From an uncultured Bacilli bacterium (GTDB lineage: Bacteria; Bacillota_I; Bacilli_A; RF39; UBA660): a stretch of 64,000 bases of DNA. Position 1 is the first letter of the stretch. Every line of letters begins with the position of its first letter. The stretch covers positions 12,006-76,005 of the forward strand of contig CAKONI010000002.1 in the NCBI GenBank assembly GCA_934097105.1. The letters are read 5' to 3'. The notes under the pieces are model-generated. The model was not told the DNA's origin. It saw only the letters and a list, made by a program, of their open reading frames with translations, and searched no databases. This document shows, piece by piece, positions 14,188 to 35,543 of this stretch. A program made the position numbers and the translations under genes.

Positions 14188-16791
14188 TTATGAAAGGGTA
14201 AATTTCTTGGCGAAAGAAGGGTTGGATTCATAAATGGTTTCTGAGGCTCCGTAAAGTCTTTCACCCGTATTAGAAAGTGTGCCTGTTTTTTTAGGTATGC
14301 TTATAGTCCATGATAATGCTTCTGTATTTTCTCCGGCACCTTTGAACATATTATACATATTTGTTACACTTGAAGTATCCCAGCGTGATAAATCTAAATT
14401 AAATGTTTCGGCTTCATAGGAACCTGCATAGGCAAACATTTGAACCATACTTGTTACTTTTGAGGTGTCCCAACCATCTAAAATTAAGTTAAAGTCGGTG
14501 GAGTAAGCACCAGCAAAAGCGAACATACCACCCATGTTTGTTACATTTGATGTATCCCAGCGTGACAAATCTAAGTTAAAAGTTGTTATATTTTTACCCA
14601 CGTAACTAAACATTCCAGACATATCTGTTACCTTTGATGTATTCCAGTTTGATATATTTCCTAAAGTCCAAGTTTTGGAATTTTGTCCTATGCTATCAAA
14701 CATATGCATCATATTTGTTACATTTGAGGTATCCCATGAAGATAAATCACCAACATTCCAAGTGCTTGCATTTGCTCCTGCATTGTAGAACATATTACTT
14801 ATGTCTGTTACTTTTGATGTATTTAAATTAGACAAGTTTAATTTAAATGATAAAACATTTTTTCCTGCATTGTAGAACATGTAACTCATGTCTGTTACAT
14901 TTGATGTATCTAAGTTAGTGAAATCACCTTTTTCCATATTAGTGAAGCCATCGAACCAATATGCTGTAGAAGTAGGTTTTATTGTTCTTCCTATTTCTAC
15001 GCTTTTTACATTTATGCGTTCATTTTTCCATATTACTGGACTACTATTAAATGTATATGGATTATCATTATCCATTGCAACATATTTATTAGTGACTGCT
15101 CCGTGTTTTGATATGTTGGCACTTCTATCTTTTAGTTGTTCATTTATTATTAATGTTCCATCATTATATAGTGTTGTCATTTCATTTACTAATTTTACTG
15201 TACATGTTGTATTACTTGTTACATTGTTTAATGTTAAAATTTTGTTATTATAAGTTCCTGTTTGATTGTTTGTACAATTAACATAAGCACTTGTGTAGTC
15301 TTCTCCGATTGGTGTTATATTGAAAGCTGTGTTTGTATTATAATCAATTGTCTTAGAAGCAGTTTCAACTGTACCATTTTGTACTACTACACTTACTGTA
15401 ACTGTTTCTTTTACAGTTATTTGTTGTGTTATTTCTATATTGCCTGTACATGTTATTTTTACACTTGTTACATCTTTTGTTAGTGGTGTATTTGGTGAGA
15501 ATGTACATGTACCATTTTCTATTTCTTCTTTTATATTTAATGTATTTTTACTGTTATCATTATATGTTGCTTCTACTTCCATACCAGTTGGATCAAATGT
15601 TTCTCCTTCTTGGTATATTGTTTTTGTCGCTGGTGTTTTTGCTGTTATTCCTGTTATGTATTTATTTACTACAGTTATGTTTTGATCTACACTTTTTCCG
15701 CTACAAGTAATTGTTACTTTTGTATCATTCTTTGAAAGTTCTCCATTTGGATTAATTGTACATTTATTATTACTTACTTCTTCACTTACGTTTTTATCTA
15801 CTGTAGTTCCATCACTATATTTATAAGTGATAACCATTCCATCACTATTAAACCTTTCTCCTTCGATGTATTCTTTCTTTGTTGCCTCAGTTTTTATACT
15901 TATATTTTCTAGCGTTACTTCTTTTGCATTTACTGTAACACTAACACTAGTTTGATCATTTCCACATTTAACTATTACTTTATCAGTTCCTACTGTTAAT
16001 TGATCTGGAACAAATTTACAAATATCTTTAGTGACGTCTAATTCTTCTGTTAGTTCATTATTGTATTTTACTTTTATCTTCATTCCTGTTGGATCGAAGT
16101 ATTCTCCGTCTTCATATATACCTTTATTAGGTTTGCTTGTTATTTCTGTTATTTCTTCGATTGTTTTTTCGCTTACTTTAATAGATTGGGTAGCAAATAC
16201 ACCTTCACAGGTAATTCTTATTTGTGTTGTATCTTTTTCTATTTTGCTTGGTGAGAATGTACAACCTTTTCCATCTTGGATTTCTGCTGAATCTCCTGTA
16301 TTATATGTTACTTTTAACTTCATTCCTGTTGGGTCAAAAGTTTCTCCTTCGATGTATTCTGTTTTTGTTGGCATTGTGGTTATATCTAGATTTGTTGGTA
16401 TTTTGTTTGTTGGTGCTTCTGCTTTGATAGGAGCAGCCCATGACCATGAACTGTTATGGTAACCACCATTTTCATCGAACCAATAAAGTGCTACGGCAAA
16501 CTTGTATGTTTCTCCTCTATTTAAGCCGTCATAAACTTTATATCCTGCTCCTCCTTTAGGTCTTAGAATCATTGCTTGGTTGTCTTTATAAGCCCAATTT
16601 GCATTTAAGACTATAATACCACATTTTTCGTATTTACAACTGGCTAAATCATATTCTACTTTTATTTGTGTACTTAGCATGTTTGTTGCTTTTGTTATTT
16701 TTGGTAATTCATCTTCTGCATGGACATTTAGCATGAAACCAAATCCTAAAAACATTATAAATAATGCTAAAATCAAATTTTTCTTTTTCAT
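14188..16791 (-). CDS. secreted modular surface protein: N-terminal beta domain, 4 bacterial Ig-like (Big_3-type) repeats, conserved connector, 7 DUF285/BspA-type repeats
   Basis: Signal peptide 'MKKKNLILALFIMFLGFGFMLNVHA'. Four repeats of the type 'TKTEYIEGETFDPTGMKLKVTY'. The C-terminal units carry 'WDTSNVTNM..MF'. Confidence 0.8.
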   Translation of the reverse strand: MKKKNLILALFIMFLGFGFMLNVHAEDELPKITKATNMLSTQIKVEYDLASCKYEKCGIIVLNANWAYKDNQAMILRPKGGAGYKVYDGLNRGETYKFAVALYWFDENGGYHNSSWSWAAPIKAEAPTNKIPTNLDITTMPTKTEYIEGETFDPTGMKLKVTYNTGDSAEIQDGKGCTFSPSKIEKDTTQIRITCEGVFATQSIKVSEKTIEEITEITSKPNKGIYEDGEYFDPTGMKIKVKYNNELTEELDVTKDICKFVPDQLTVGTDKVIVKCGNDQTSVSVTVNAKEVTLENISIKTEATKKEYIEGERFNSDGMVITYKYSDGTTVDKNVSEEVSNNKCTINPNGELSKNDTKVTITCSGKSVDQNITVVNKYITGITAKTPATKTIYQEGETFDPTGMEVEATYNDNSKNTLNIKEEIENGTCTFSPNTPLTKDVTSVKITCTGNIEITQQITVKETVTVSVVVQNGTVETASKTIDYNTNTAFNITPIGEDYTSAYVNCTNNQTGTYNNKILTLNNVTSNTTCTVKLVNEMTTLYNDGTLIINEQLKDRSANISKHGAVTNKYVAMDNDNPYTFNSSPVIWKNERINVKSVEIGRTIKPTSTAYWFDGFTNMEKGDFTNLDTSNVTDMSYMFYNAGKNVLSFKLNLSNLNTSKVTDISNMFYNAGANASTWNVGDLSSWDTSNVTNMMHMFDSIGQNSKTWTLGNISNWNTSKVTDMSGMFSYVGKNITTFNLDLSRWDTSNVTNMGGMFAFAGAYSTDFNLILDGWDTSKVTSMVQMFAYAGSYEAETFNLDLSRWDTSSVTNMYNMFKGAGENTEALSWTISIPKKTGTLSNTGERLYGASETIYESNPSFAKKFTLS

Positions 16792-16896
16792 TTTTTCCTC
16801 TCCTTTTCATCTATCCTTATTTACGACAATTTTAACATATTTTTGACTTTTTTTGAATGTTTTTTCTGTTTTTATTTTTCATTTTACATTTTGTTT

Positions 16897-16925
16897 ACAT
16901 AAAGTTTTTTTTGTTTACCATACTA
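16897..16925 (+). promoter_or_regulatory. candidate forespore (sigma-G/F-type) promoter of the germinant receptor operon
   Basis: ACATA (16897-16901), a 17-nt spacer, then CATACTA (16919-16925). This compares with the GNATA-N17/18-CATNNTA pattern. It lies 20 nt upstream of the gerA-type start. Confidence 0.4.
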
Positions 16926-16944
16926 ATTATAAAGGTGTGATTAT

Positions 16945-21037: not shown

Positions 21038-23134
21038 TTAACTTGATGGACATGTTTTTGTATATGGGGTACCAGTATTAGTCTCATTTGTTGCAACGTC
21101 TTTTCTAGTTACTTTCCATTCATAAGACTCTCCTGCTGTACAAGTTGCCTCAGCAGTGGCATCTTTCGCAAATTTTTTTGCTCCAGTTGCTGTTTCTGGA
21201 TCAATAAATGGTTTTCCAGAGCCGTCTTTTCCTGCTGTTTTCCATGTTGAACTACCTTTTTTCCTATATTCTATCCTAAATTCTTTTAATCCTGAATCAT
21301 CATCTGTTAAATCAGTTGTAACAGTCCAGACAAGTTTTCCTTTAGTACTGCTTTTTGAACTCACTTCACCACCTGATGGAGCTGTTTGATCTATTTTAAT
21401 TGTACAAACTGGTGTTGTAGATTCATTTCCAATATGATCCACTGCATAGAAATAACTAGTTAATTGCCCTGTCCCACTTATCCTTTTTGAAAGAGTGTTT
21501 GACGTATACGAACTTGTTTTTGCTGATAAACCTTCTACTGTATAACGATCTTCTTCTTTAGTCGAATTTGAATTTTTAATTCTTTGTTTTATTGTTTTTA
21601 CACCCGTATAGTTATCTGTACAAGTAAATTTCGCATAAACATCATATTTTGTCCATCTGCCACAAGTGTAAGTTTCATTTCCATTTTTTGTTTTTTGGTA
21701 AGTTATTGTGCACTTTGGACCAGCAGTATCTACTCCTATTCTAATACTATCAGGCACTACACTGCATCTGCCATTATAACACGCTCTTAAATAAATTGTT
21801 GTACCTGCTGGTTTTTCATCTTTATAAGACATACCAGATACTGGTGATGAGAATGTTGCTGAAGTATCCCATTCATAAATAGTTCCTGATAAACCACAGT
21901 TACTTCCACCACGAGCATACAAACCATCTGCCCAAGTATCACTTGAACTTGTTGATTTTGATATTGTTGGTGTATCAGGAGTACAAACTCCTACCGTAAC
22001 ACTTACATCCTTAGTTACATTACCACATTTAACAGTAACTTTAGTTGTACTACTTGTAAGTGTACTTGGTGTAAATGTACATTGATTTGCTGAAACATCT
22101 ATTGTTCCTTTTGTTCCGTCTTTGTAGGTAACATCCATTTTCATTCCATTTGGAATGAATGTTTCTCCTTCAGAGTAAGTTGTTTTTGATGGATTACCTG
22201 AAACGTTGGTTACTTCTTGTATTTCTTTTGTTGGTTCAGTAGTACCACTTACTGTGATTTTTTGCTTGTATGGTGCATTACCACATGTAATTGTTACTTC
22301 TGTATCATTTTTTGTAAGTGCTCCATCTGGGGTTATCTTACAAATATTATTACTAACTGCATCTTTGACATTTATATCTCCAGTTGTTCCATCTTCATAG
22401 TCTGCTTCTAGGACAAGTCCTGTTGGATCGAATTTTTCTCCTACTTTGTATGTTGTTTTTGATGGATCACTCTTTTTCTTTAGTGTAGTTATTTTACTGT
22501 CTGTTCCTATGCTTCCATTTACTGTTATTTTTTGGTATACCGTGTCATAATCACAACTAACTCTTACTGCTGTAGTGCTACTTTCAATTTGTTCTGGTGT
22601 AAATGTACAACCTTTTCCATCTATGATTTCTCCAGTATCTCCTGTAGTATAGTTTACTTTTATTTTCATTCCTGTTGGATCGAATTTTTCTCCTGCTTTG
22701 TATGTTGTTTTTGTTGGTTCTTTTGTTATTTCTATACTTCCTGCGACTTTGTCTTTTGGTGCTTCTGCTTTTATAGTGACAGGTTCGCTATAAGCGCTAT
22801 TATGATAACCACCATTTTCATCAAACCAATAAAGAGCTACTCTAAAAGAATAGGTTTCGCCTCTATTTAAGTTTTCGTAAATTTTATAGCCTTCACCGCT
22901 TGCTCTTAATGACATTGCTCCATCATATTTATAAACCCAGTTATCAATTACAACTATGATGCCACATTTTTCATAATCACAACTGCTTAGTTTATAATTT
23001 ACTTTTATTTGAGTGCTTAACATGTTTATTACTTTTGTTATTTCTGGTTTTGCACTTTCTGCATGCACATTAAGTGCAAAACTAAAGCCAAATAATAATG
23101 TAAACAAGGTAATTATTAAGGTTTTATTTTTCAT
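21038..23134 (-). CDS. secreted modular surface protein (paralogous N-terminus to 14188..16791, 3 Ig-like repeats, Cys-rich C-terminal Ig-like region)
   Basis: It has a signal peptide. 'PEITKVINMLSTQIKVNYKLSSCDYEKCGIIV' is paralogous to 'PKITKATNMLSTQIKVEYDLASCKYEKCGIIV'. Three repeats contain 'GEKFDPTG'. The distal part contains 'IDQTAP'. Confidence 0.8.
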   Translation of the reverse strand: MKNKTLIITLFTLLFGFSFALNVHAESAKPEITKVINMLSTQIKVNYKLSSCDYEKCGIIVVIDNWVYKYDGAMSLRASGEGYKIYENLNRGETYSFRVALYWFDENGGYHNSAYSEPVTIKAEAPKDKVAGSIEITKEPTKTTYKAGEKFDPTGMKIKVNYTTGDTGEIIDGKGCTFTPEQIESSTTAVRVSCDYDTVYQKITVNGSIGTDSKITTLKKKSDPSKTTYKVGEKFDPTGLVLEADYEDGTTGDINVKDAVSNNICKITPDGALTKNDTEVTITCGNAPYKQKITVSGTTEPTKEIQEVTNVSGNPSKTTYSEGETFIPNGMKMDVTYKDGTKGTIDVSANQCTFTPSTLTSSTTKVTVKCGNVTKDVSVTVGVCTPDTPTISKSTSSSDTWADGLYARGGSNCGLSGTIYEWDTSATFSSPVSGMSYKDEKPAGTTIYLRACYNGRCSVVPDSIRIGVDTAGPKCTITYQKTKNGNETYTCGRWTKYDVYAKFTCTDNYTGVKTIKQRIKNSNSTKEEDRYTVEGLSAKTSSYTSNTLSKRISGTGQLTSYFYAVDHIGNESTTPVCTIKIDQTAPSGGEVSSKSSTKGKLVWTVTTDLTDDDSGLKEFRIEYRKKGSSTWKTAGKDGSGKPFIDPETATGAKKFAKDATAEATCTAGESYEWKVTRKDVATNETNTGTPYTKTCPSS

Positions 23135-23145
23135 GTTTTACCTCC

Positions 23146-23796
23146 TTAACCAAATATTCTTTTTTTTCTTAATACTATAGCAATTCCGCCACCTAATATA
23201 GCAGGTAATGATAAGAATGGTGAAATTCCTGTGTTAGGATTGTTTGTTGTTTGTTGTGTTCCTCCGTTAGTTGTATATTCTTTTGTTTTTTTTGTAGTTT
23301 TACTACCATTACTTGAATTATCAGTGTCATCATCTGGATCACTTATTGGATCATCATCACTTGGTTCATCGCCTGGGTCTTCTTCACTTAGTGCATAAGA
23401 AGTTTTTACTACTTTTAGTGTATCAGCACAATCATATGCTGGTACTTTTCCCCAATCCTCAGGATAGGGTATTGTCCAGTTGTTAAATGATAGGAAATAA
23501 CCATATAATGTTCTTCCATCTTCTGATGGTGCAAAAAATTGTTGTTGTTTTCCACTTGTTGTTTTTACAAAATCTTGGTATGACTTCCCTGATACAGAAA
23601 ACTTTCCTGTTGAAGAATCAAAACTGAAATCAGTTCTTGCATTTTCAAGTTCTGAAGTGAAGTTTCCACATATGTCTTCTATATCTTCGCCTTCAATGCT
23701 CCAATCTGGATCTGCTTTATAATTTGCTGCATCTACGTTTCCAACCATTAAAACCATCCCTAAAATCATAAACATAAAATAAGTTATTTTTTTCAT
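23146..23796 (-). CDS. secreted protein with acidic linker and C-terminal cell-wall sorting-like signal (NPNTG)
   Basis: ATG 23796 lies behind GGAGGAG. The signal peptide ends 'VGNVDA'. The C-terminus is 'NPNTGISPFLSLPAILGGGIAIVLRKKRIFG'. The N-domain is paralogous to that of the 23959..25215 product. Confidence 0.65.
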   Translation of the reverse strand: MKKITYFMFMILGMVLMVGNVDAANYKADPDWSIEGEDIEDICGNFTSELENARTDFSFDSSTGKFSVSGKSYQDFVKTTSGKQQQFFAPSEDGRTLYGYFLSFNNWTIPYPEDWGKVPAYDCADTLKVVKTSYALSEEDPGDEPSDDDPISDPDDDTDNSSNGSKTTKKTKEYTTNGGTQQTTNNPNTGISPFLSLPAILGGGIAIVLRKKRIFG

Positions 23797-23958: not shown

Positions 23959-25215
23959 TTAAACATATGCTGATTTTACTTTAGAGTAGTTACTATATAC
24001 TTTTTTATTATTAACTATTTTATAGGCACGTACTTTGTAATAGTATTTTTTACCTTTTCTTAAATTTTTATTTAGCATATATAGTGATTTTGTATTTTTT
24101 ATATAAACGTATTTTTTTGTTTTGGCATTATATCTATATACAGCGTAGCCTGATGCTCCATTTACTTTGTACCATGCTACTCTTGCTACACCTTTTTTAT
24201 ATTTTGTAACTTTTAATGTTGGAGTGCTTGGTATTGGTTTTACTCCTGTTTGTGATGAGTAATCACTGTACACTTTCTTACCGTTTATTGTTCTATAGGC
24301 TTTTACTTTATAATACGAAGTTTGTCCTGTTACATTTTTATATGTTGTATTTACATATAGATTTTTTGTATTTGTTATTACTGTTGAATAACTTTTTGTT
24401 TTTTTATTATATTTATATACTGTGTATCCTGTTGCTCCGGTTACTTTTGACCATGTAACTTTTATTTTGTTATAATTTACTGATGATGATTTTACTTTTG
24501 TTGGTTTGTTTAGTTTTGGTGTAATACTAATATAGTATTCTTCTCCAGTACGTTTTTCTCCTTTGTAAATTACATATGGTACGATTTTATAATATGCTTT
24601 GGTTCCTGTTGTTAAACTATTTGTTGTTGTGTAACTTTCTTTTGTTGTGTCTGTTAGTTTTTTTGTATATGTTTTTCCATTATCGTTTGATTTGTAAATT
24701 ATATACGCTGCTTTTGATACATCTTCTTTTACTGTTTGGTAAGCCATCTTGTATGTTAATTTTATTGTGTTATAGTTTACTGAACTTGCTAAAGCGTATG
24801 AAATGTATGGTTTTGTTACTCCATTTACATTAATTGGGTAAGACTTATCTTCTGTTTTGTATACTTTAGCACAGTTGAATGCTGGAAGGTTTAGTGCTTT
24901 TACTTCTTCTACTTTAGCATTTTTGTTGTAGTTTAGAACGTAGATGTATAGTGCTCTATTACTTTTTCCAACATTATAGAATATTATGTTTGTATTTTTT
25001 GCTTCTTTATAGGTTTCGCCTGTTAGGGAAAATTTACCAGTTGATTCATCAAAATTATAACTTGTTCTTGCATTTTCTAGTTCACTTGTGAATGTACCAC
25101 AAGCAGTTCCTATTGCGCTTGGTCCTCCTTGTTTATAGACGTCTGCTTTTACTCCAGTTGATATTGTAAGTAATGCTATGGTTATTAGCATAAATAAATA
25201 TTTTCTTTTTTTCAT
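23959..25215 (-). CDS. secreted protein with shared N-domain and 3-4 fibronectin-type-III-like repeats
   Basis: It has a signal peptide. 'CGTFTSELENARTSYNFDESTGKFSLTG' is paralogous to 'CGNFTSELENARTDFSFDSSTGKFSVSG'. The repeats are of the type 'KVTWSKVTGATGYTVYKYN...YYKVKAYRTINGKKVYSDYS'. Confidence 0.7.
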   Translation of the reverse strand: MKKRKYLFMLITIALLTISTGVKADVYKQGGPSAIGTACGTFTSELENARTSYNFDESTGKFSLTGETYKEAKNTNIIFYNVGKSNRALYIYVLNYNKNAKVEEVKALNLPAFNCAKVYKTEDKSYPINVNGVTKPYISYALASSVNYNTIKLTYKMAYQTVKEDVSKAAYIIYKSNDNGKTYTKKLTDTTKESYTTTNSLTTGTKAYYKIVPYVIYKGEKRTGEEYYISITPKLNKPTKVKSSSVNYNKIKVTWSKVTGATGYTVYKYNKKTKSYSTVITNTKNLYVNTTYKNVTGQTSYYKVKAYRTINGKKVYSDYSSQTGVKPIPSTPTLKVTKYKKGVARVAWYKVNGASGYAVYRYNAKTKKYVYIKNTKSLYMLNKNLRKGKKYYYKVRAYKIVNNKKVYSNYSKVKSAYV

Positions 25216-25269: not shown

Positions 25270-28200
25270 TTATTTTATTTTAGTTTTTTTTGCAAACATG
25301 AAGTAACTTCCTGTTATTATTAGTATTGCTCCGATTATTATTACTAAAGTACTTATATTATTGTTTGTGTTTGGAATTGGTACTGCTTTTAGTACTTTTT
25401 CTATTGCTGTAAATGTTATGTTTTCTTTTATAACTGCTTGTTTTAGTTCTTCGTTTGTTATTTCATTTCCTTTTTCTATTATGTTTCCATTTTTTAAAGT
25501 TATGTCTTTGTTTGCTATCCATACTAAGGCTTTTTCATTTGTTGTTATTTTCACTTTGGTTCCTGTTGGGTTTTCGTTATAGGATACTTTTTCTTTTGTT
25601 TTTCCTGTTATTTTTGCATTTTCTGTAGATATGTATTTTACTATATACGTTATTTTTTGTGTTATTATTTTTATGTTTGTGTTTTCTTTTATTGTTATTT
25701 TAGTTAGATTATTTTTGTTTATAATTGTTCCTTTTTTTATAATTTTATTGTTTAGCAATACGTCTTTGTTTGCTTTTAGACCAATTATTTTATATCCTTG
25801 TTTTGCCTTGTAGGTTGTTCCTTTTAGTTTTTTTGTTATATTTGTTTGTTCTTTGGTGATTCCTGTTATTATACTGTTTTCATCGGTTATATAGTTTACG
25901 TAGTATTGTTCTAATTTAGTTTGTCCTGTTATTGTTAGGTTTTCTTTTATTATTATTTGGTTTATTTGTTCTTTGGTTAGTGATTCACCTTTTTTTATTA
26001 TGGTTCCATCTTTTAGGGTTACGTCTTTATCTATTGTCCAATTTTTGAATTTGTATCCTTGTTTTGGTTTTAGGGTGGTTCCTAGTGGTGATGCGCCGCT
26101 TGGTACTTCTTCTTCTAGTATTCCTGTTATTGTGCCGTTTTCATCACTTGTATATATGATGTTATATTTATTTATGTAGTGATATATTGTAAATGTTATG
26201 TCGTCGTCTACTAGAACATTTTTTATTTGTTCTTCGGTTAGTGGTGCACCTTTTTTTATTGTGGTTCCATCTTTTAGGGTTACGTCTTTGTCTGCGGCCC
26301 ATTTTAGTATTTTGTATTCGTCAAAGGTTTCATGGGTTGTTCCGCTTGGGTTTTCTTTATATTTTTTTGTTTCTTTAGTGGTTCCGGTTATTTTACCATA
26401 GTTATCACTTGCGTAGTTTATTTGATATGATTTTATTTGGTAGTTTGCTTTATAGAATTTATCTTCTGTTTCATTTTTTATTGTTATGGTTTTGGTTGGT
26501 GTTTTTATGGAGTCATTTGTCCAACCGATAAATTCATATCCTTTTTTTGATGGCTGTGGTAAGGTGATTGTATCTTCGATTGTATATGATGTTATGCCAT
26601 TATTTAAAGTTCCTCCATCTAAATCGTAGGTTATTTTGTAATTTATTGTATTGTATTTTACTGTACAAGTAGTGTCTTCTGTTAGATTTTTTAGATTTAA
26701 AATGTTATTTTCTATGGTTGCGGTTTGATTATTGGTGCAGGTTACTTCGGGGTTATTATATCCTAGATTATTTTTTAGGGTTATGCTAGCGGTTTCGTTT
26801 TTCTTTAGGGTTAGTGATGTTTTTTCTGCACTTCCGTTTATGACGTTTATTTTTATGTCCATTATTTCTTTATTCCATATGGCATATAGGTTTATTTCTT
26901 CACCATCTTTGTCTGTTAAGTTTAATATACTTAGGTCTCCGTCATATCCTTCGAACATTGATGTTTTGGCATTTTCATCTTTGTTCCATCCAATGAATGT
27001 ATAGCCTTCTCTTGTGAATAGGTTATTTTTTAGGTTTTGTTCTTTATCGTAGGTGAATTCTTCTTTTATTTTGGTTCCTATTCCTTTATTGGGATTATAT
27101 ATTATATAGTATTTTATTGGACTAAATACTGCTTTATATGTTTTGTTTCCTGTTGTTCCTTTTTTGATTGTGAGTGTTTTTAGTGATTCGTTTTCGTTTT
27201 CCCATGATATGAAGTTGTATCCTTTTTTTTCGGGATTTTCTATGGTGAATTCGCTTTCTATATTATAGTCTTTTGTTATAATGTTGTCTTCGATTCGACA
27301 TGTTATTGTGTAGTTTATTGGTTGCCATTTGGCGTATATGGTTATGTCGTCTTCTGGGAATTCTTCTTTTGTAAATTCGTTTTCTAAAGTTTTGTCATAC
27401 CAGCCTAGGAATTTATAACCTTCTTTTTCTGGCGTTGGGATTTTTGGTATTTTTTCTAGATATTTTCCTGTTATTTTGTCTATTGATGTTTCATTTTCTT
27501 TTTCTATGGTTATTGTTATATCTTTTATTTCCCATTTGGCATATAGATTTAGGTTTGTATTTTGATTTGATGTATCTTTTATTTCGTTTATGAAGTTTTC
27601 TTCTGTGTACCAGCCTAGGAATTTATAACCTTTTTTGGTTGGACTATAAAGTGTTTTTATTTCTTCTTTGTTGTATGTTGTAGGGTTATTTTCGTTATTT
27701 TGTCCATCGTTTAGGTTGTAGTTTATTGTGTAGTCTTCTAGGGTCCATTTAGCGTATAGGGTTATATCGCTTTCTGGGAATTTTTCAAAGGTGTATAGTT
27801 TGGTTAGTTTTTTATCTTGATACCAACCGGCGAATTTATAACCATCTTTTTTAGGATCTTCTGGTTTTGTTAGAGGGCTTGCTATTTCTCCTTCTAGTGG
27901 ATTTATAGTGCTTCCTCCATTTGTATCAAAGGTTATGGTTACTTTTTTCTTTTGATAGTTTGCATATAAGGTTGTATCTTCATTTAAGGTATAAGTGCTT
28001 CCTTTGTTTCCAATCTTTTGAGTTAGGTTTTTGTCGCTGTAGTAGCCTTCTAGGGTGTAGCCTTCTTTTTCTATATCTGGTAGTGTTACCGAAGCGCCTA
28101 AGTAATTTGCGTAAAGATTTTGGGTTTTGTTTTCTATTTGAGTGGTATTATTTACTCTAGTTTGGAATGTTTTTTCTTTATACCAACCTAGGAAGTAGTT

Positions 28201-30480
28201 TGTAAAGGTGTCTTTTTTTAGGATTTCTTCATTATCTTTATAAATTATGGTGCTTGTTTTAGTTGGTGTTTTTAAGTTTTTATATGTGTTATAAGCGATA
28301 TATGAGTCGTTTTTTTGACCATTGTTGTAGTTATAGATAACTGTTTGTCCCATTAGTCTAGTTGGTCTTAGGACTAAGAAGAGATCTTTTCTACTATTTA
28401 GTGATGAGAAGGCATTGTGAATTAGGTTGTGGGCTGATTCATTTGTATATTTGGTGAAACCATTTTTTCCAAATATTAGGAATGAGCCTTGTTCGTCGCT
28501 TGTTGATGTTTGTTCTTCTCCGGTTTGTCCTAAGAAGATGTATGTGTTCATTAGGGATGAGTTTGATGAGTAAGTTACTAAAATATCTCCGTATTCTAGA
28601 TCTTGAGTTCTTATATATTTTAGTCTGTCTCCGTTTTCGTTTCCTCTTAAACTTAGTCCTCCGTATAGACCTGGTACGAGCATTTTTTTAATTTGTTCTG
28701 TTGATTCTGAAAGGCCTTTTTGGACTATGTAATCGTCGCCACTGTTTCTAAATAGTGCTTCTTTTATGTTTTGGTTTGTAAGCATTGTTAAATCTATTCC
28801 TAATTCATTGTAGTATAACATTTTAATGAATCCTGAACTTGTTAGTGACATGTTGGTGATGTTATCTATATCTATATTTACGTTGTCTGTGCTATTTGAA
28901 ACGTATGTTATTTTTCCACTGTTATAAAGGTTTTTTATTTTATCGATGCTATTTGTAAAACTGTTAATGTTTTCTTTGGTTAGTGTTGGGTTTACATAAA
29001 CATCTAGATTTGAATAGGTAAGACTGTTGTTGTTTGTGGTTGTTATTTTTATTCCCTCGTTTGTTATTTTTTCTTTATCTGTTTCTACTTTTACTGTGTA
29101 TGATAGCACTTGTTTTTGAGGGTTATTTATATCTTTTTTAGGTACTTTATCGAAACTATCCCAGATTATTTTGTTTCCTTGGACTCTACAACTTATACAT
29201 TTTACGAATGTTGTTCCGCTTGGAATGGTTCCTTCAATGGTAAGACCAATATAATTTTCTTTGTTTGAAACTGAGTTATATTTTTCTTTTCCAATGTATT
29301 CGATTAATTGGCCATTATCTTTTCGCCATGTTCCTCCGCTTTGGGTGCAACTGTTTTCGTCGTGATAGGCTCCGGATGATTTTAGTCCGGTACAGATATA
29401 TGTATTTGACATGTTTTCTAGTTCGAAGTTATATGTTATTTCGTCTCCGTTGTTTACTGAGTTGTATTTTCCTATATATTTGTTTATGTCGCTGGTTGTT
29501 TGATATTCTTTTTTGGTTGTTGTGTAGGCTTCGCTACGTAGTTTTTTTAAGTCGTTTCTGGCTAGTGAGTCTTCTTTTTCTGCGGCTGTAAGTGTACAAC
29601 TATCTGAGATACAATATCTATTTATTGGTCTTAGGACCATGACTGATAATAAGTCGTTTGTTAGGTCGAATACTTTTTCTAGGTTTGAGATTGAGCCATT
29701 TTTTACTGAGTTATATACTTCTTTAAAGTCTCCACCGTTTGAGTGGATGATTGATTCTCTTGTTCCTTGACCATCTAGGGCGTCACCAACGTACATAAGA
29801 GCGTGGCCTCCGCCTGTGTGTCTATAAACTATTATGTCTCCGTTTCTTAGAATGTTTTTTATATTATTTATGATGCTTGTTTTTTTTGCAGTATCTTCGG
29901 TTGTTGTGGTTTCGTAGTAATATACAATTGGAGAGGTGTTATTTGTGTTTTTATTTATGTATTCTTCTCCAGCATTTTTGTTTGCTTGTCTTTTTGATAG
30001 GTTATTAAAGAATGCGGTGTTTATTCCTACGGCGCTTGTTTGATAGGCTGCTTTATAGTTTTGGGGACTTGTATATGAGTAGGAAATGTTAAATGAACTT
30101 GCTAGGTATTTGCTATTTGAGAAAGAATAGTAGTCTGAGAAGTCATATCCTAGGGCGTGTATATATACGGATGAGGCAAAACTTGAGCAATCTATGAAAT
30201 ATTGATTTCCTCTACTTATTGATTCTGGGGTTAGGTTAAAATTCCTATATCTAATAGAGTTTCTATAGGTTCCGGTGGCATTGTCCATGGCTTTTTGTGA
30301 GTAGTCGGAATATTTGCCGTTATAGTAGTAACTTAATGCGGTTGATGTTACCATGTCTTCTAATTCTTTTCTTGTAAATTCTGTTTTGGCATATGATACT
30401 TTCATTATACTGCCAAGTAGTACTAAGCTGATTCCTAATAGTAATACGATATATTTGTATTTATTTATTTTTTTTCTCAT
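25270..30480 (-). CDS. giant (1736 aa) cell-surface protein: NlpC/P60-like Cys-His domain, multiple Listeria-Bacteroides (Flg_new-type) repeats, four ~86-aa C-terminal repeats, C-terminal anchor
   Basis: Signal peptide, then 'FIDCSSFASSVY' ... 'GGGHALMYVGD' ... 'IIHSNG'. Repeats of the type 'EGYKFLGWY....ITLYAKW'. The C-terminus is 'IPNTNNNISTLVIIIGAILIITGSYFMFAKKTKIK'. Confidence 0.85.
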   Translation of the reverse strand: MRKKINKYKYIVLLLGISLVLLGSIMKVSYAKTEFTRKELEDMVTSTALSYYYNGKYSDYSQKAMDNATGTYRNSIRYRNFNLTPESISRGNQYFIDCSSFASSVYIHALGYDFSDYYSFSNSKYLASSFNISYSYTSPQNYKAAYQTSAVGINTAFFNNLSKRQANKNAGEEYINKNTNNTSPIVYYYETTTTEDTAKKTSIINNIKNILRNGDIIVYRHTGGGHALMYVGDALDGQGTRESIIHSNGGDFKEVYNSVKNGSISNLEKVFDLTNDLLSVMVLRPINRYCISDSCTLTAAEKEDSLARNDLKKLRSEAYTTTKKEYQTTSDINKYIGKYNSVNNGDEITYNFELENMSNTYICTGLKSSGAYHDENSCTQSGGTWRKDNGQLIEYIGKEKYNSVSNKENYIGLTIEGTIPSGTTFVKCISCRVQGNKIIWDSFDKVPKKDINNPQKQVLSYTVKVETDKEKITNEGIKITTTNNNSLTYSNLDVYVNPTLTKENINSFTNSIDKIKNLYNSGKITYVSNSTDNVNIDIDNITNMSLTSSGFIKMLYYNELGIDLTMLTNQNIKEALFRNSGDDYIVQKGLSESTEQIKKMLVPGLYGGLSLRGNENGDRLKYIRTQDLEYGDILVTYSSNSSLMNTYIFLGQTGEEQTSTSDEQGSFLIFGKNGFTKYTNESAHNLIHNAFSSLNSRKDLFLVLRPTRLMGQTVIYNYNNGQKNDSYIAYNTYKNLKTPTKTSTIIYKDNEEILKKDTFTNYFLGWYKEKTFQTRVNNTTQIENKTQNLYANYLGASVTLPDIEKEGYTLEGYYSDKNLTQKIGNKGSTYTLNEDTTLYANYQKKKVTITFDTNGGSTINPLEGEIASPLTKPEDPKKDGYKFAGWYQDKKLTKLYTFEKFPESDITLYAKWTLEDYTINYNLNDGQNNENNPTTYNKEEIKTLYSPTKKGYKFLGWYTEENFINEIKDTSNQNTNLNLYAKWEIKDITITIEKENETSIDKITGKYLEKIPKIPTPEKEGYKFLGWYDKTLENEFTKEEFPEDDITIYAKWQPINYTITCRIEDNIITKDYNIESEFTIENPEKKGYNFISWENENESLKTLTIKKGTTGNKTYKAVFSPIKYYIIYNPNKGIGTKIKEEFTYDKEQNLKNNLFTREGYTFIGWNKDENAKTSMFEGYDGDLSILNLTDKDGEEINLYAIWNKEIMDIKINVINGSAEKTSLTLKKNETASITLKNNLGYNNPEVTCTNNQTATIENNILNLKNLTEDTTCTVKYNTINYKITYDLDGGTLNNGITSYTIEDTITLPQPSKKGYEFIGWTNDSIKTPTKTITIKNETEDKFYKANYQIKSYQINYASDNYGKITGTTKETKKYKENPSGTTHETFDEYKILKWAADKDVTLKDGTTIKKGAPLTEEQIKNVLVDDDITFTIYHYINKYNIIYTSDENGTITGILEEEVPSGASPLGTTLKPKQGYKFKNWTIDKDVTLKDGTIIKKGESLTKEQINQIIIKENLTITGQTKLEQYYVNYITDENSIITGITKEQTNITKKLKGTTYKAKQGYKIIGLKANKDVLLNNKIIKKGTIINKNNLTKITIKENTNIKIITQKITYIVKYISTENAKITGKTKEKVSYNENPTGTKVKITTNEKALVWIANKDITLKNGNIIEKGNEITNEELKQAVIKENITFTAIEKVLKAVPIPNTNNNISTLVIIIGAILIITGSYFMFAKKTKIK

Positions 30481-30612: not shown

Positions 30613-30616
30613 ATTG

Positions 30617-31147
30617 TTATTTGAAATATTCATTATATTTTTTTTCATGCCCCAAAGTTGTTTGTTTGCCATGGCCTGGATATAGAATAATATCATCGTC
30701 ATATTTTTTGATTTTTTCTATTGATTGTATCATATCTTGATAGGATCCTCCGGGTAAGTCTACTCTTCCTATGTTTTCGTAAAAGATAAAGTCTCCGACG
30801 AACATGATGTTATATTCTTCGAAATAGAAGCAGATACTGCTAGGGGAATGTCCTTTGGTGTAAATTGTTTTGAACTGGAAGGGGCTGATTACTTTGGTTC
30901 CCTCAAAAAGATTTTTATGATCGAAAATGGATATTTTGTAAAAGTCTGAGAGTGATAGTGCACATCCTGTATGATCGAAGTGGTTGTGGGTTAATAATAT
31001 GGCTACTGGAGTTAGTTTCATTTTTTCTATTTGTTTTATGATGTTGTTTTCTTCTGCTCCTGGGTCAATTATTAGACATTTACCGTTTTCGTAAAGGATA
31101 TAGCAATTTGTTTCTAGTTCTCCGACTATTAGTTTAAGCATTTTCAT
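30617..31147 (-). CDS. MBL-fold metallo-hydrolase
   Basis: 'LLTHNHFDHTG' is the HxHxDH motif. 176 aa. It overlaps the murC stop by 4 nt. Confidence 0.85.
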   Translation of the reverse strand: MKMLKLIVGELETNCYILYENGKCLIIDPGAEENNIIKQIEKMKLTPVAILLTHNHFDHTGCALSLSDFYKISIFDHKNLFEGTKVISPFQFKTIYTKGHSPSSICFYFEEYNIMFVGDFIFYENIGRVDLPGGSYQDMIQSIEKIKKYDDDIILYPGHGKQTTLGHEKKYNEYFK

Positions 31148-32445: not shown

Positions 32446-32652
32446 TTTTATTCCTCCATTCATATATTATAATTATATAGTTTTTTAGAGAAAATTACAA
32501 GAAAACTTGTGTTTTTTTAATGAGTTGTAATATTATTGGTACTTATATAAAATGAGTAAGTAGATAAATTTACTAACTCGCTTTAATCTTTTGTTTATAA
32601 TATTTTTTTAATATGACAAGTAGGAACTATTTATCATTATTTTTATTATAAA

Positions 32653-32745
32653 TTATTTTGCGTAATAGATATAAACTCCAAGTCCTAGTATTAAAACTGA
32701 TATTACAATTATAGCAATTAATAATCCTGTACCTTTCTTTTCCAT
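32653..32745 (-). CDS. possible 30-aa single-TM peptide
   Basis: Absent from the ORF track because it is short. AAAGGAGAAAAAT precedes the ATG. It encodes 'MEKKGTGLLIAIIVISVLILGLGVYIYYAK'. Confidence 0.35.
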   Translation of the reverse strand: MEKKGTGLLIAIIVISVLILGLGVYIYYAK

Positions 32746-32816
32746 ATTTTTCTCCTTTTATTTATAATTTAAGTATATATGTATATGTCTATATTAGTCA
32801 AGATTTTTTCAAAAGA

Positions 32817-32855
32817 AAAGTACTAAGTATTATAGATATTATATTACTTAGTACT
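32817..32855. repeat. conserved palindromic terminator element, copy C
   Basis: AAAGTACTAAGT-N17-ACTTAGTACT, 18 nt 3' of the stop at 32874. Confidence 0.7.
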
Positions 32856-32873
32856 AATTATATTATTTGTTAT

Positions 32874-35543
32874 TTATGAAAGAGTGAAACTCTTACCTGA
32901 ACATGGTTCTGCATAGACACTTTCAGAAGATCCGTACCATTTACTAGTAGTATTAGTAAGACTTCCTGTAGTACTTGGTATTTTTACAGTCCATGTTGTA
33001 GCATTAGAACCTGCAGCATTAAACATACTACCCATTTTTGTTACTTGTGATGTATTCCAGTTTGATAAATCTAAATTAAAGGTTGTGGCACTATAGCCTG
33101 CATTACTAAACATTCTTTTCATATCTGTTACTTTTGATGTATTCCAATTTGATAAATCGAAATTAAAAGTTGTAGCATTAGAGCCTGCTCCATAAAACAT
33201 AGAACTCATATCTGTTACATTAGAGGTATTCCATGAAGACAAATTTCCTATACTCCAGGTTGTGTCTTTATAGCCTGCTCCAGAAAACATATTCGACATA
33301 TTTGTTACATTTGAGGTATCCCATGATGATAAATCTCCTATACTCCATGTTGTCGCATAATAGCCTGCTTGTTGAAACATTCCCCTCATATCTGTTACAT
33401 TAGAGGTATTCCATGAAGACAAATTTCCTATACTCCAAGTTGTGGCTTTAGAGCCTGCTGTAGAAAACATATACGACATATTTGTTACATTTGAGGTATC
33501 CCATGATGATAAATCTCCTATACTCCATGTTGTAGCAGAAGAACCTGCTCCCTGAAACATTCCCCTCATATCTGTTACATTTGATGTATTCCAATTTGAT
33601 AAATCTAAATTAAAAGTTGTGGCTTTAGAGCCTGCTCCATAAAACATAGTACTTATATCTGTTACATTAGAGGTATTCCATGAAGACAAATTTCCTATAC
33701 TCCATGTTGTGGCATTTCTGCCTGCAATATAAAACATAGCCCTCATATTTGTTACATTAGAGGTATTCCACGAAGATAAATCTCCTATACTCCATGTTGT
33801 CGCATTTCTGCCTGCAATATAAAACATATCCCTCATATTTGTTACATTAGAGGTATTCCATTTATCTATCCCAATCAAACTAAAGGTTGTGGCATCATCG
33901 CCTGCAGAATCAAACATAAAACTCATATCTGTTGTGCTTGATGTATCTAAATTAGTAAAATCTCCTTTTTCCATTGCAATAAACTTAGCAAACCAAGATG
34001 CAGTAGAAGTAGGTTGTATTGTTTCTCCTATTTCTACGCTTTTTACTTTCTCACTATTACTATCCCATGGACGAGCAGCTGTTCCTATTACAGGTCTAAT
34101 AAATACATATGAGTTTTCACTATCCATAGCGTTATATTCCTTTATTACTTTTCCATGATTTGCTATATTAGAATTTCTATTAGTATTTTGTTCATTTATT
34201 ATAAATGTTCCATCTTCATATAATGATGTTACTTCACTTGTTACTTTTACTGTACATGTTGTATTATTTGTTACATTTTTTATTGTTACCTGATTATCTT
34301 TAAATGCTCCATTTTGGCTGTTTGTACAGGTTACTACTCCAAGTGCATTTTCTATATTTGGTGTTATATTAAATATTCCATCTTCATTATAATTAATAGT
34401 TTTTGTGGATTCATCATTTATTGTTCCATTTTGTACTACTACGTTTATTTCATATTTATTTAGTTCCCATACTGCATATAAGTCTACTATTTTATCTTTT
34501 TCTGTTGTTAAATTTATTATTTCTTCTTCATCACTATATTTTACTTCTCCATTTGGAGTTGTGCTCCATCCTTTGAAGGTATTACCTGTTTTTGTAAATA
34601 CATTCTTTGATAATTTACCTGTTGTTCCTGTAGTAAAATTAGAATTTGTCATTGTTCCAGTTCCACCATTTGCATTGTATCTTACTTGATATGGCATATT
34701 GTTTTCTACCCATACTGCATATAAATTAACTACTCCATTATATACATTTGTTAGATTAGATACTTCTTCTTCATCTTTATATATTATATCTTTACTATTA
34801 TTTGATGTAGACCATCCTGCAAAAACATAGCCTTCTTTTGTAAATGTATTTTTTGATAGTTTTTTTGATTCTCCTTGTTTAAATGTAGTACTTGGCATAT
34901 TACCTGTTCCAGTATTTGAATTATATTTTACTGTATATGTTTCTTCTGTGTCTACATTTCCTACATTTGTTTTTACATCTATTCTAAATTTATATTCTAA
35001 TTTTGTGTCTTTGTTCCAATTACTTATATCTACATCTTTATCTAACCATATTCTTAGTTTATATTTATCTTTTATTTCTTTTGATGTATTAGTGTGACTA
35101 TTTGTTTTTGTATATATTACATAATCTTTACTTATTTTACTTATATTATTTTGTACTAAAGGATTATTATTATAATCTGTTAAGTAAAAATTTATATCTT
35201 TATCTTCTAATTGTGTATATCCTGAAGTTGGTTCTAGTTTTTCTAATACTAAACTATAACTTATATCTAATGTTTTACTTGTTTTTGTGTTTACTACGAA
35301 GTCAAAGGTATTGGTTTGTCCTTTTCCTTCGGTTTCTGTCATTGGCATAGCATTTTCTAAACTTATTACATTTGTATTACTTTCTAAAAATTCTATACTT
35401 GTACTTTCAGTTGTTATTTTATTATCATCAGTACTTACATATGTATATCTATATACTGCATATGATCCTCCGATTGTTAGGATTAATCCTAGCACTAGTA
35501 AGAATATACTAAATTTTTTTAGTTCTTTTACTCTTTCATTCAT
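32874..35543 (-). CDS. N-terminally anchored surface protein: 2 Listeria-Bacteroides repeats, conserved connector, 11 DUF285/BspA-type repeats
   Basis: TM anchor 'FSIFLLVLGLILTIGGSYAV'. Repeats 'EGYVFAGWS...VNLYAVW'. The connector is shared with 14188..16791. The C-terminus 'KSFTLS' compares with 'KKFTLS' in that protein. Confidence 0.85.
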   Translation of the reverse strand: MNERVKELKKFSIFLLVLGLILTIGGSYAVYRYTYVSTDDNKITTESTSIEFLESNTNVISLENAMPMTETEGKGQTNTFDFVVNTKTSKTLDISYSLVLEKLEPTSGYTQLEDKDINFYLTDYNNNPLVQNNISKISKDYVIYTKTNSHTNTSKEIKDKYKLRIWLDKDVDISNWNKDTKLEYKFRIDVKTNVGNVDTEETYTVKYNSNTGTGNMPSTTFKQGESKKLSKNTFTKEGYVFAGWSTSNNSKDIIYKDEEEVSNLTNVYNGVVNLYAVWVENNMPYQVRYNANGGTGTMTNSNFTTGTTGKLSKNVFTKTGNTFKGWSTTPNGEVKYSDEEEIINLTTEKDKIVDLYAVWELNKYEINVVVQNGTINDESTKTINYNEDGIFNITPNIENALGVVTCTNSQNGAFKDNQVTIKNVTNNTTCTVKVTSEVTSLYEDGTFIINEQNTNRNSNIANHGKVIKEYNAMDSENSYVFIRPVIGTAARPWDSNSEKVKSVEIGETIQPTSTASWFAKFIAMEKGDFTNLDTSSTTDMSFMFDSAGDDATTFSLIGIDKWNTSNVTNMRDMFYIAGRNATTWSIGDLSSWNTSNVTNMRAMFYIAGRNATTWSIGNLSSWNTSNVTDISTMFYGAGSKATTFNLDLSNWNTSNVTDMRGMFQGAGSSATTWSIGDLSSWDTSNVTNMSYMFSTAGSKATTWSIGNLSSWNTSNVTDMRGMFQQAGYYATTWSIGDLSSWDTSNVTNMSNMFSGAGYKDTTWSIGNLSSWNTSNVTDMSSMFYGAGSNATTFNFDLSNWNTSKVTDMKRMFSNAGYSATTFNLDLSNWNTSQVTKMGSMFNAAGSNATTWTVKIPSTTGSLTNTTSKWYGSSESVYAEPCSGKSFTLS
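32982..33965 (-). repeat. tandem 90-nt (30-aa) coding repeats, about 11 units
   Basis: 'gttacattagaggtattcca' recurs at 33661, 33751 and 33841, exactly 90 nt apart. Adjacent units such as 'DLSSWNTSNVTNMR[D/A]MFYIAGRNATTWSIG' are nearly identical. Confidence 0.85.

Follow-up and report, generated by a model that had tools for sequence, protein, structure and literature searches.

Mosaic evolution of modular, predicted surface-protein genes, probably by homologous recombination, in an uncultured gut Bacilli bacterium

A cluster of six minus-strand genes (A to F) in the 64,000-nucleotide stretch of DNA analysed here (the window) is very probably evolving as a mosaic, driven by homologous recombination and without programmed switching. 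The loci are syntenic among strains yet variable, and strain comparison revealed module exchange both between gene copies and between strains. The six genes belong to a paralogous family whose modular, exported products have a predicted cell-surface location, and the family extends beyond the modular cluster that the initial annotation had recognized. That annotation had also described an actively recombining adhesin repertoire. Recombination is supported by conversion tracts, mosaic alleles and a duplicated supermodule in the strain comparisons, but the sharing within the window is old and would by itself be no proof of activity; adhesion is a putative function.

The host is an uncultured, spore-forming gut bacterium with low GC content (29%), and genomes of its genus measure 0.7-1.2 Mb, while the source genome assembly is only 56% complete. 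All six open reading frames are present (Table 1). Gene A encodes a signal peptide, a predicted Fn3-like N-module, four Big_3 repeats, an Ig-like connector with a cap and a seven-unit DUF285/PARCEL solenoid, and lacks a C-terminal anchor. Its connector combines an Ig-like domain of ~75 aa, of which F and E have versions too, with the downstream cap, a helix-bearing element at the N-terminus of the DUF285 solenoid. Gene B shares the beginning of this order (signal peptide, N-module, three Big_3 repeats) and ends in a Cys-rich Ig-like C-terminal half; the N-modules of A and B lie in direct orientation 6.3 kb apart. Gene C is located 11 nt upstream of B and ends in an acidic stalk, NPNTG, a hydrophobic stretch and the basic end RKKRIFG, and gene D combines a C-like N-terminal domain with Fn3-like repeats. 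Gene E contains six Flg_new repeats, one connector-type Ig domain, C-terminal repeats of ~87 aa, a Cys-His region with a weak, sub-threshold NlpC/P60 match (Pfam, E <= 1) and a transmembrane tail of IPNTN, a hydrophobic stretch and KKTKIK. Gene F starts with an N-terminal transmembrane or SipW-type leader with a TasA-cassette-like domain, followed by two Flg_new repeats, the connector and an eleven-unit DUF285 array. The tails of C and E resemble sortase signals with non-canonical motifs, and a sortase-family ORF was found on contig C16 (45.9 bits); no sortase-type sorting signal was found at the C-termini of A, B and F. Further family members lie outside the window: contigs C4, C9 and C8/C5 carry copies of F type, and a B-like/C-like gene pair on contig C11 forms a second paralogous locus. 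An ECF-like sigma gene is situated downstream of A.

Table 1. Positions of the six genes and their modules within the window.
Feature	Position	Strand	Remarks
Gene A	14188..16791	-	867 aa
N-module of A	16417..16716	-	aa 26-125; predicted Fn3-like beta-sandwich
Big_3 Ig-like repeats of A (n=4)	15412..16416	-	
Connector of A	14917..15411	-	aa 461-625
DUF285/PARCEL array of A	14191..14916	-	seven units, 29-30 aa each
Gene B	21038..23134	-	698 aa
N-module of B	22760..23059	-	aa 26-125
Gene C	23146..23796	-	216 aa from the ATG of the initial annotation; an upstream ATG extends it to 23826
Globular domain of C	23362-23724	-	
Gene D	23959..25215	-	418 aa
Gene E	25270..30480	-	1736 aa
Connector-type Ig domain of E	26656-26871	-	aa 1204-1275
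Gene F	32874..35543	-	889 aa
Central part of F	33904..35269	-	gene nt 275-1640; homogenised with paralog F2
DUF285 array of F	32877..33950	-	hypervariable among strains

In an all-vs-all BLASTP of the six proteins with low-complexity masking switched off, every block that had been proposed as shared was significant (E 1e-8 to 1e-110). These blocks are a matter of domain homology rather than of low complexity. The signal peptide and N-terminal beta domain common to A and B fall within an alignment of their N-terminal 344 aa (49% identity, E 2e-99), and the connector common to A and F within one that also includes the DUF285 units (52% over 394 aa, E 2e-110), while the first half of the connector recurs in E (42% over 74 aa, E 1e-8). 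C and D share a domain (33% over 144 aa, E 7e-19), and the Listeria-Bacteroides repeats of E and F align over 202 aa (31%, E 2e-18). Domain models agree with these alignments: DUF285 (PF03382) matched A with 205 bits and F with 378.9 bits (cut-off 25), the PARCEL model TIGR02167 with 104.5 and 157.4 (cut-off 30), Big_3 (PF07523) matched A with 54.8 and B with 65.8 bits (cut-off 21.2), and Flg_new, the Listeria-Bacteroides repeat or InlB B-repeat (PF09479), matched E with 225.6 and F with 55.4 bits (cut-off 27). In E, Flg_new_2 was matched as well, and TIGR02543 reached 139.6 bits there, above its cut-off of 20.95, with F just under it (17.8). The repeat numbers given initially were exact, with seven and 11 DUF285 units in A and F and four and three Ig-like 'GE.F...GM' units in A and B; Flg_new cores number six in E and two in F. 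The reading of these proteins as true mosaics, with shared domains that meet at domain boundaries, is supported. Within the window, shared modules have ~50% protein and 67-79% DNA identity, with no exact match longer than 30 nt, and judging from this divergence the sharing is old. The class 1 internalin model NF033188 (InlH/InlC2) scored 79.6 bits on E against a cut-off of 1050, with the B-repeats alone matching, and E was rejected as a class 1 internalin.

The AlphaFold model of the connector plus DUF285 region (pLDDT 90.8) shows a solenoid with one strand per unit; a PDB fold search with it gave no significant match, the best being weak ones to LRR ectodomains (E >= 0.095). The N-module model (pLDDT 90.3) found PDB matches of which the top ones were nearly all FnIII domains (TM 0.45-0.63, best E 2.7e-4). 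No Pfam family matched the N-module (A aa 26-130) or the globular domain of C at E <= 1, FnIII PF00041 included for the former, and the N-module had only ~7 full-length matches among 1.84 billion representatives. These results portray the N-module as an Fn3-like fold that forms a separate, rare sequence family.

Gene order is the same in at least eight independent assemblies, and the flanks of conspecific strains from other gut metagenomes are 95-99% identical. Against this background, sharp drops in identity are confined to the two N-modules (A and B), the C globular domain, the B C-terminus and the F DUF285 array, and identity changes from >=98% to <=60% within tens of bases. The strain data consist of metagenome contigs throughout and comprise three or four haplotype groups with few independent events. 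Synonymous divergence in the variable modules is roughly tenfold that of the flanks, with dS of 1.0-2.9 in the N-module (1.7 for that of A) and 1.6 in the globular domain of C compared with 0.03-0.18 in flanking genes, and dN/dS there ranges from 0.14 to 0.41. Genes D (92% aa identity) and E (dS 0.14) are conserved between strains. In gene C the signal peptide, acidic stalk and tail are invariant and the globular domain occurs in three types, and in F the N-terminal half is 95-97% identical between strains compared with 60-66% aa identity in the DUF285 array, whose units number nine to 15. Alleles of B are mosaics in which the N-module and the C-terminal parts each come in several types and in various combinations, so that blocks of 98-100% identity abut blocks of 40-60%. 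Lengths vary too: in one strain the A allele encodes 1483 aa, with a supermodule present in duplicate and a DUF285 block of F type, and the A of one strain has a fifth, near-identical Big_3 unit. However, no rearrangement was found among near-identical strains, and since four independent assemblies with an identical A protein are colinear and 98.4-99.98% identical, rearrangement must be slow relative to the spread of strains.

The N-modules of A and B are more alike within a genome (90%, 87% and 67% identity) than are orthologs of different N-types (49-59%). Quartet sites from nt 82 to 373 support grouping by genome 43 times versus ~4 times by locus (permutation p < 5e-5), this tract ends exactly at the N-module borders, and sites in the signal peptide or beyond nt 385 follow locus. 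As the N-module thus groups by genome in a tract bounded by module borders, the data indicate interlocus gene conversion between A and B. In the L015/L016 quartet, the tract at nt 184-361 holds 16 by-genome, no by-locus and two third-pattern sites; all three synonymous by-genome sites of this quartet are inside it, and the one other informative synonymous site there follows the third pattern and none follows locus, small numbers though these are. Monophyly of the A alleles was rejected by the AU test (p = 6.5e-9), a p-value that is partly post hoc given that the by-genome hypothesis was named after the identity matrices had been seen. The two N-modules are never identical within a genome, and their dS of 0.24-0.94 implies that A-B conversion is episodic and old compared with the strain splits.

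A comparable case is F2, a second F-type copy outside the window on contigs C8/C5. Judging from L019, the gap between these two contigs should span 198 nt. A central part of 1.4 kb is 91-100% identical between the two paralogs and the ends are locus-specific, with clustered quartet sites (permutation p < 1e-4). At nt 361-450, F equals F2 in the source genome (100%), and F2 is only 79% identical to its ortholog. The central part of F and F2 is homogenised by gene conversion, with a lineage-specific tract.

The connector tree places the A-type clade (100/98) as sister to the source genome's own F/C4/C9 clade (98/97), both together (94/95) against other species. We propose that the genes were assembled through duplication and fusions at domain boundaries, and that in A the N-terminal part of a B-type gene (signal peptide, Fn3-like N-module, Big_3 stalk) was joined to the part of an F-type gene that comprises Ig-connector, cap and DUF285 solenoid, a fusion that would have happened within the lineage of this species and not recently. 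Remodelling continues by ordinary, presumably RecA-dependent, homologous recombination, for which the signal peptides, linkers, Ig repeats, repeat cores and similar conserved stretches serve as anchors. Three processes were observed. Interlocus gene conversion homogenises single modules within a genome, as for the A/B N-modules and, between distant loci, the center of F and F2, and module-sized allelic replacement between strains introduces long-diverged variants of those modules that lie outermost or are probably most exposed (N-module, C globular domain, B C-terminus and DUF285 arrays). Intragenic gain and loss of repeats and supermodules, as the third, changes protein length. Selection by phages, host antibody or ligand diversity might keep several module types in the population.

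The sharing of modules in differing combinations, the break of the source assembly inside F2 at the tract shared with F and a serine recombinase gene 6 kb from A would all suit programmed antigenic or phase variation, i.e. an expression site with cassettes that switches modules often within a clone. This is very unlikely given the low DNA identity and short exact matches between modules of the window, the colinearity of the four assemblies with identical A, the fact that each copy forms a complete ORF with a leader of its own and the presence of the serine recombinase in all strains. That recombinase (6798-8390) has 93-99.6% protein identity in every strain regardless of allele type and was dismissed as a driver. 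The source genome, provisionally in view of its completeness of 56%, yielded no silent or promoterless cassettes (all module matches lie in full-length ORFs), no dedicated recombinase and no RVT_1 match to a reverse transcriptase. A diversity-generating retroelement (DGR) was rejected on the lack of a reverse transcriptase and of a template-like repeat of the variable modules, which also differ by indels and synonymous sites, and an invertible promoter or shufflon on the weakness of the only inverted repeats in the vicinity, a pair with 73% complementarity at a spacing of 5.3 kb and a short palindrome in the F leader. Alternatively, all domain shuffling could be ancient, followed by diversifying selection in place through point mutation with no module recombination at population time scales. 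Such a history would agree with the ~50% protein identity of modules within the window and with a dN/dS above that of the housekeeping neighbours in some variable segments (0.78 in the middle part of B, G000 vs L016), but it is highly improbable in light of the tenfold dS excess at dN/dS <1, the abrupt identity transitions, the blocks of sites that group by genome and the varied combinations of segment types in B alleles. Hypermutation in place was rejected on the same dS excess. Chimeric contigs or collapsed repeats from mixed-strain samples are a barely credible source of the pattern: all strain data are metagenome contigs, some samples may hold more than one strain and the source genome breaks inside F2, yet identical haplotypes were recovered from independent samples by different assemblers (IIa in three samples, IIb in at least two, I in five), the A/B N-modules of one genome differ by 10-33% and would not collapse, and a 212-kb contig cleanly bridges C8 and C5.

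A different reading of the A/B similarity is co-adaptation, where the Fn3-like N-modules of A and B would dock onto the variable globular domain of C, a protein with a putative wall or membrane anchor, in a cohesin-dockerin-like manner and selection for matching types, not neutral conversion, would keep A, B and C of a genome in one type. A and B carry signal peptides without an anchor, C has its invariant stalk and NPNTG/hydrophobic/basic tail with a sortase encoded in the genome, a B-like gene adjoins a C-like gene at two paralogous loci (in the window and on contig C11), and across the available strains the type of the C globular domain (I, IIa or IIb) always corresponds to that of the N-module. 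Nevertheless, we regard co-adaptation as unlikely, as only three lineages are available and co-variation is confounded with strain phylogeny, the C globular domain and the B N-module lie within ~1 kb and could travel in one tract, the by-genome tract has the synonymous sites and sharp ends that gene conversion predicts, and the homolog P0005 has no C-like neighbour. Equally doubtful is the corollary that the rare N-module of the anchor-less A and B and the hypervariable head of C are cognate docking partners whose specificity type (I, IIa, IIb or III) depends on the strain. If true, this would be a previously undescribed non-covalent system of surface display whose partners must switch type together, which would explain both the matching A/B/C types and the paired B-like/C-like genes.

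Mosaic evolution by homologous recombination has parallels in several known systems. For the DUF285/PARCEL repeats themselves, horizontal transfer and intragenomic shuffling have already been proposed (Roske et al. 2010, PMC2996958). As proposed for those 'BspA-like' proteins (PMC2996958), unit number varies between strains and there are signs of intragenomic shuffling, and the 29-30-residue units of A and F score far above the cut-offs of PF03382 and TIGR02167 and sit behind membrane-targeting leaders. The present host, however, is a walled, spore-forming gut Firmicute rather than a Mollicute, its array always follows a conserved Ig-like domain plus cap in fusion with a Big_3 or Flg_new stalk, the evidence for recombination comes from strain quartets and not from distribution, and an association with mobile elements was not seen here.

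In the Listeria internalins (inlC2-inlD-inlH), new members arise by recombination between neighbouring paralogs. These likewise form an exported multigene family combining a solenoid with Ig-like domains and B-repeats, and the Flg_new repeats of E and F belong to the same Pfam/TIGR family, but the solenoid here is DUF285 and not a canonical LRR, and LPXTG or GW anchors are lacking. The Alp family of Streptococcus agalactiae (alpha C, Rib, Alp1-4) and comparable mosaic surface proteins of Gram-positive bacteria have one locus per strain and LPXTG anchoring. They resemble our cluster in having a signal peptide, an N-terminal domain that varies, tandem Ig-like repeats that are identical but differ in number, and chimeric alleles produced by recombination among family members, whereas here several coexisting loci exchange modules. 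The slpA-cwp66 S-layer cassette of Clostridioides difficile is exchanged between lineages by homologous recombination. Both cases involve a syntenic locus at which a few deeply divergent types of exposed domains are swapped on a near-clonal background while the anchoring parts are conserved, although our cluster shows neither CWB2 nor evidence of an S-layer, and its exchange is module-sized (few hundred bp) and coupled to interlocus conversion between paralogs. SlpA of C. difficile serves as a phage receptor (PMC10100898). In Plasmodium falciparum, gene conversion has shaped the dimorphic alleles of merozoite surface proteins (PMC10919680). These alleles share the very old surface-antigen classes on a low-diversity background and the paralog gene conversion, but being eukaryotic and built from unrelated proteins they offer a conceptual analogy only.

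Because the phenomenon is well known in Gram-positive pathogens, as a familiar bacterial route to surface variation, the conceptual advance is modest. The analysis marks the variable, probably exposed domains (N-module, C head, B C-terminus and DUF285 arrays), provides markers for strain typing, accounts for the assembly breaks in such genes of these organisms and defines two domain families without a Pfam model, the N-module with its Fn3-like fold and the connector of Ig domain and cap found ahead of every DUF285 solenoid. Uncultured gut Bacilli with small genomes are abundant and almost unstudied, and it is probably the surface proteins of these bacteria that determine their susceptibility to phages, their coating by antibody and their attachment. 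The locus offers a clean, quantifiable example of a reduced genome that diversifies its surface by module-sized homologous exchange among paralogs and strains while gene order and housekeeping neighbours remain nearly clonal.

The six surface-protein genes of the window, here A to F (table), share modules in different combinations, as the initial annotation had proposed. Pfam and NCBIfam models place DUF285/PARCEL repeats in A and F, Big_3 domains in A and B, and Flg_new, the Listeria-Bacteroides repeat claimed for both proteins, in E and F. All claimed shared blocks were recovered by all-vs-all BLASTP of the window proteins without masking: the N-terminal 344 aa of A and B (49% identity, E 2e-99), connector plus DUF285 in A and F (52%, E 2e-110), the first half of the connector in A and E (42% over 74 aa, E 1e-8), C and D (33% over 144 aa, E 7e-19), and E and F (31% over 202 aa, E 2e-18). 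Moreover, the annotated repeat counts were exact, with seven DUF285 units in A and eleven in F, and four Big_3-type (Ig-like) units in A and three in B. Housekeeping genes break up the run within 14188-35543; A and B are separated by a plus-strand gerA/gerC/gerB spore-germination operon, E and F by a Mur ligase gene and a metallo-beta-lactamase-fold gene.

Coordinates of the surface-protein genes and of further features (window positions unless a contig is named)
Feature	Position	Strand	Description
A	14188-16791	minus	867 aa ORF
B	21038-23134	minus	698 aa ORF
C	23146-23796	minus	ORF, 216 aa counted from the start codon of the initial annotation
D	23959-25215	minus	418 aa ORF
E	25270-30480	minus	1736 aa ORF
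F	32874-35543	minus	889 aa ORF
F2	C8:1-1233 and C5:1-1113 (outside window); L019:10001-12499		F paralog, 832 aa in other strains
Conserved hairpin	12872-12910, 14140-14176, 32817-32855		3' of stop codons
Sigma-70 region-4 gene and partner	12920-14078		just 3' of A; partner 230 aa
BclA_C/collagen-like gene	5841-6575		244 aa
Fic/RhuM-family gene	10332-12029		139-aa ORF only
E aa 1-700	28381-30480		weak NlpC/P60 match
F aa 1-200	34944-35543		homologous to C1:105711-108572
P0005	L038:1586-4972		1128-aa relative of A

Two of the modules were characterized by fold. The N-module, which spans aa 26-125 in A and B and has no Pfam match, was modelled as a beta-sandwich (pLDDT 90.3), and nearly all of its top PDB hits are FnIII domains. 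The family is rare, with about seven full-length matches to its profile among 1.84 billion representative proteins, always at residues 26-130 directly behind the signal peptide. The ~190-aa connector of the initial annotation was only partly upheld. A model of aa 461-867 of A (pLDDT 90.8) comprises an Ig-like domain of ~75 aa, the part that also occurs in E, then a strand-and-helix cap and a solenoid in which each 30-aa unit contributes one strand. Thus, the homology between A and F, and of the first half with E, stands, while the second half belongs to the DUF285 domain, as its N-terminal cap, and is no separate module. This model had no significant match to solved structures, and its LRR resemblance is weak.

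The family extends beyond the window, as seen by tblastn of the modules against the whole available genome (G000; 636 kb in 20 contigs, of which C2 contains the window, 29% GC, 56% complete; same-genus genomes 0.7-1.2 Mb). C4 and C9 carry further F-type genes (of 1061 and 1108 aa, respectively), and another, F2, is divided between the starts of C8 and C5. A 212-kb Hadza metagenome contig joins these two contigs across a gap of 198 nt, so they are adjacent in the chromosome; on it, F2 has a penicillin-binding protein gene on one side and gyrA on the other. C11 harbours a B-like/C-like gene pair, and C1 four tandem paralogs (~210-245 aa) of the N-terminal 200 aa of F (24-33% identity, E 3e-17 to 5e-6). 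The N-terminal 860-990 aa of E have counterparts (39-41% identical) in five other species of the genus, and a sixth matches the first 390 aa only; ORFs carrying this N-terminus in other species are of very unequal lengths (1248-2428 aa). The NlpC/P60 match of E was below the cut-off (E 4.7e-4). P0005, possibly from another species, is a relative of A at a different locus, with a dockerin-like double EF-hand insert between its Big_3 repeats and a C9-type C-terminus. Its gene lies between a HIT gene and a glycyl-tRNA synthetase gene, flanks that had no match among the available contigs of G000.

The initial annotation had regarded the repertoire as actively recombining, an interpretation that is supported in part. 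It cannot be deduced from the sharing within the window, where module DNA is 67-79% identical and the longest exact matches span 21 nt (A-B), 30 nt (A-F), 14 nt (A-E) and 15 nt (E-F). In a connector tree, all A-type connectors fall into one clade (100/98), sister to the F/C4/C9 clade of the same genome (98/97), and the pair (94/95) is set off from the connectors of other species in the genus. Given this tree and the low module identity, the A chimera arose in this lineage, but long ago.

It is the comparison of strains that shows recombination. An identical A protein occurs on six contigs, and four of these loci, which come from different samples, match the window colinearly at 98.4-99.98% identity; no rearrangement is thus seen among close strains. 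Gene order is also unchanged in more distant conspecific strains (metagenome contigs L015 with L018; L016; L017 with L023; L022; L025). A 300-nt sliding comparison with these gave 95-99% identity almost throughout, with sharp drops at both ends of B (5', 70-77%; 3', 73%), at the 5' end of A (74-87%) and in the DUF285 array of F (62-81%). For most of C there was no nucleotide match, and D and E showed background-like identity. Values of dS reached 1.0-2.9 in the N-module and 1.6 in the globular domain of C, and were 0.03-0.18 in gerA, gerC, the sigma gene, murC, D and E; dN/dS remained at 0.14-0.41. High dS with low dN/dS indicates that the variable modules are old alleles put into a young background by recombination. 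Further, alleles of B are combinations of segment types: that of L023 carries an N-module of type IIa (of types I, IIa and IIb), a middle block 98-100% identical to G000 and a C-terminal half with 40% protein identity. The A allele of L017 (1483 aa) has one additional near-identical Big_3 unit and a first connector plus DUF285 block with F-type array and C-terminus (66% to F vs 50% to A), followed by a second Big_3/connector/DUF285 supermodule; the DUF285 array of this supermodule shares 94% identity with that of A. F alleles contain 9-15 DUF285 units, with arrays of 60-66% identity vs 95-97% in the N-terminal half.

Exchange is also apparent between paralogs. Signal peptides of A and B track the locus (A leader 96% between G000 and L015; B leader 84-88%), and the N-module tracks the genome, A vs B being 90% identical in L015, 87-89% in L016 and L025 and 67% in G000; orthologs of unlike N-types reach 49-59% only. 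N-types of A and B agree in all four haplotype pairs seen, the ML tree of N-modules groups by type, and a single clade of A alleles was rejected by an AU test (p = 6.5e-9) of a hypothesis framed after the identity matrix was known. In the G000/L015 quartet, 43 informative sites in nt 82-373 group by genome vs ~4 by locus, and nt 1-63 and all past nt 385 group by locus (124 sites; permutation p < 5e-5). L015 and L016 are closely related (gerA dS 0.027), and their quartet contains a contiguous tract (nt 184-361) with 16 sites by genome, none by locus and two showing the third pattern; it also includes all three synonymous sites that group by genome. The A-B tract ends are module borders, namely the signal-peptide cleavage site and a KA(E/Q)AP linker. 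Such a sequence pattern is expected of interlocus gene conversion between directly repeated modules 6.3 kb apart. In no genome have A and B become identical here (dS 0.24-0.94), so the exchange is episodic.

Likewise, F and F2 of G000 are 95% identical over gene nt 123-1173, including runs of at least 180 nt at 100%, and the assembly break falls exactly inside this near-identical region; the first 120 nt and the DUF285 arrays are locus-specific. In a quartet with F of L018 and F2 of L019, 171 sites, mostly at both ends, follow orthology, and the 17 sites in conflict with it are concentrated in nt 275-1640 (permutation p < 1e-4). Within nt 361-450, F and F2 of G000 are identical, yet this F2 is only 79% identical to its own ortholog, a gene conversion specific to this lineage.

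Other sources of variability found little footing. Local hypermutation is ruled out by the dS excess of the variable modules over their flanks. No reverse transcriptase was found in the available 56% of the genome, nor template-like repeats of variable modules, nor convincing invertible repeats, and there were no promoterless cassettes among the module matches in the available genome (56% complete). A nearby serine recombinase was rejected as driver, being present in every strain, whatever the allele type.

Protein C varies in its 120-aa globular head, which occurs in three types matching N-module types I, IIa and IIb, and its signal peptide and acidic stalk, including the tail of NPNTG, hydrophobic stretch and basic residues, are almost invariant between strains. 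C16 carries a sortase-family ORF, and the sequences of A and B contain no anchor. This suggests, as a speculative hypothesis, that C could dock A and B. A simpler reading of the type match is linkage, given that the C head and the B N-module lie within ~1 kb; conversion of A would complete it.

Several neighbouring features deserve mention. The sigma-70 region-4 gene and its partner are 97-100% conserved and directly 3' of A in every strain examined, including that with the 1483-aa allele, and may be regulators of the surface-gene cluster. A, F and the 230-aa gene each have, past their stop codon, a hairpin of conserved sequence, AGTACTAAGT ... ACTTAGTACT, that looks like a common terminator element. 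Within a stretch that is conserved apart from it, the BclA_C/collagen-like gene (301-304 aa in L015 and L016, at 63-64% identity) encodes a further surface or spore-coat protein of variable length. The Fic/RhuM-family gene is intact (316-321 aa) in L011, L013, L015 and L016. In L017 and in L012, which matches the window at 99.98% identity, it is fragmented into short ORFs; it appears to be decaying in this lineage. In L022 (13307-13925; sample ERZ1748966), the gene after gerC is not gerA but an unrelated plus-strand ORF of at least 138 aa, so that the germination operon beside A has been rearranged or interrupted in this strain.

Module exchange and allelic cassettes are classical in Gram-positive surface proteins, and the locus resembles internalins, the Alp family and the C. 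difficile S-layer cassette in this respect. For DUF285/PARCEL repeats, both horizontal and intragenomic shuffling has already been proposed (PMC2996958). The locus adds a new, well-documented case, from an uncultured gut lineage, of a known module-exchange phenomenon, and includes two domain families without a Pfam model.
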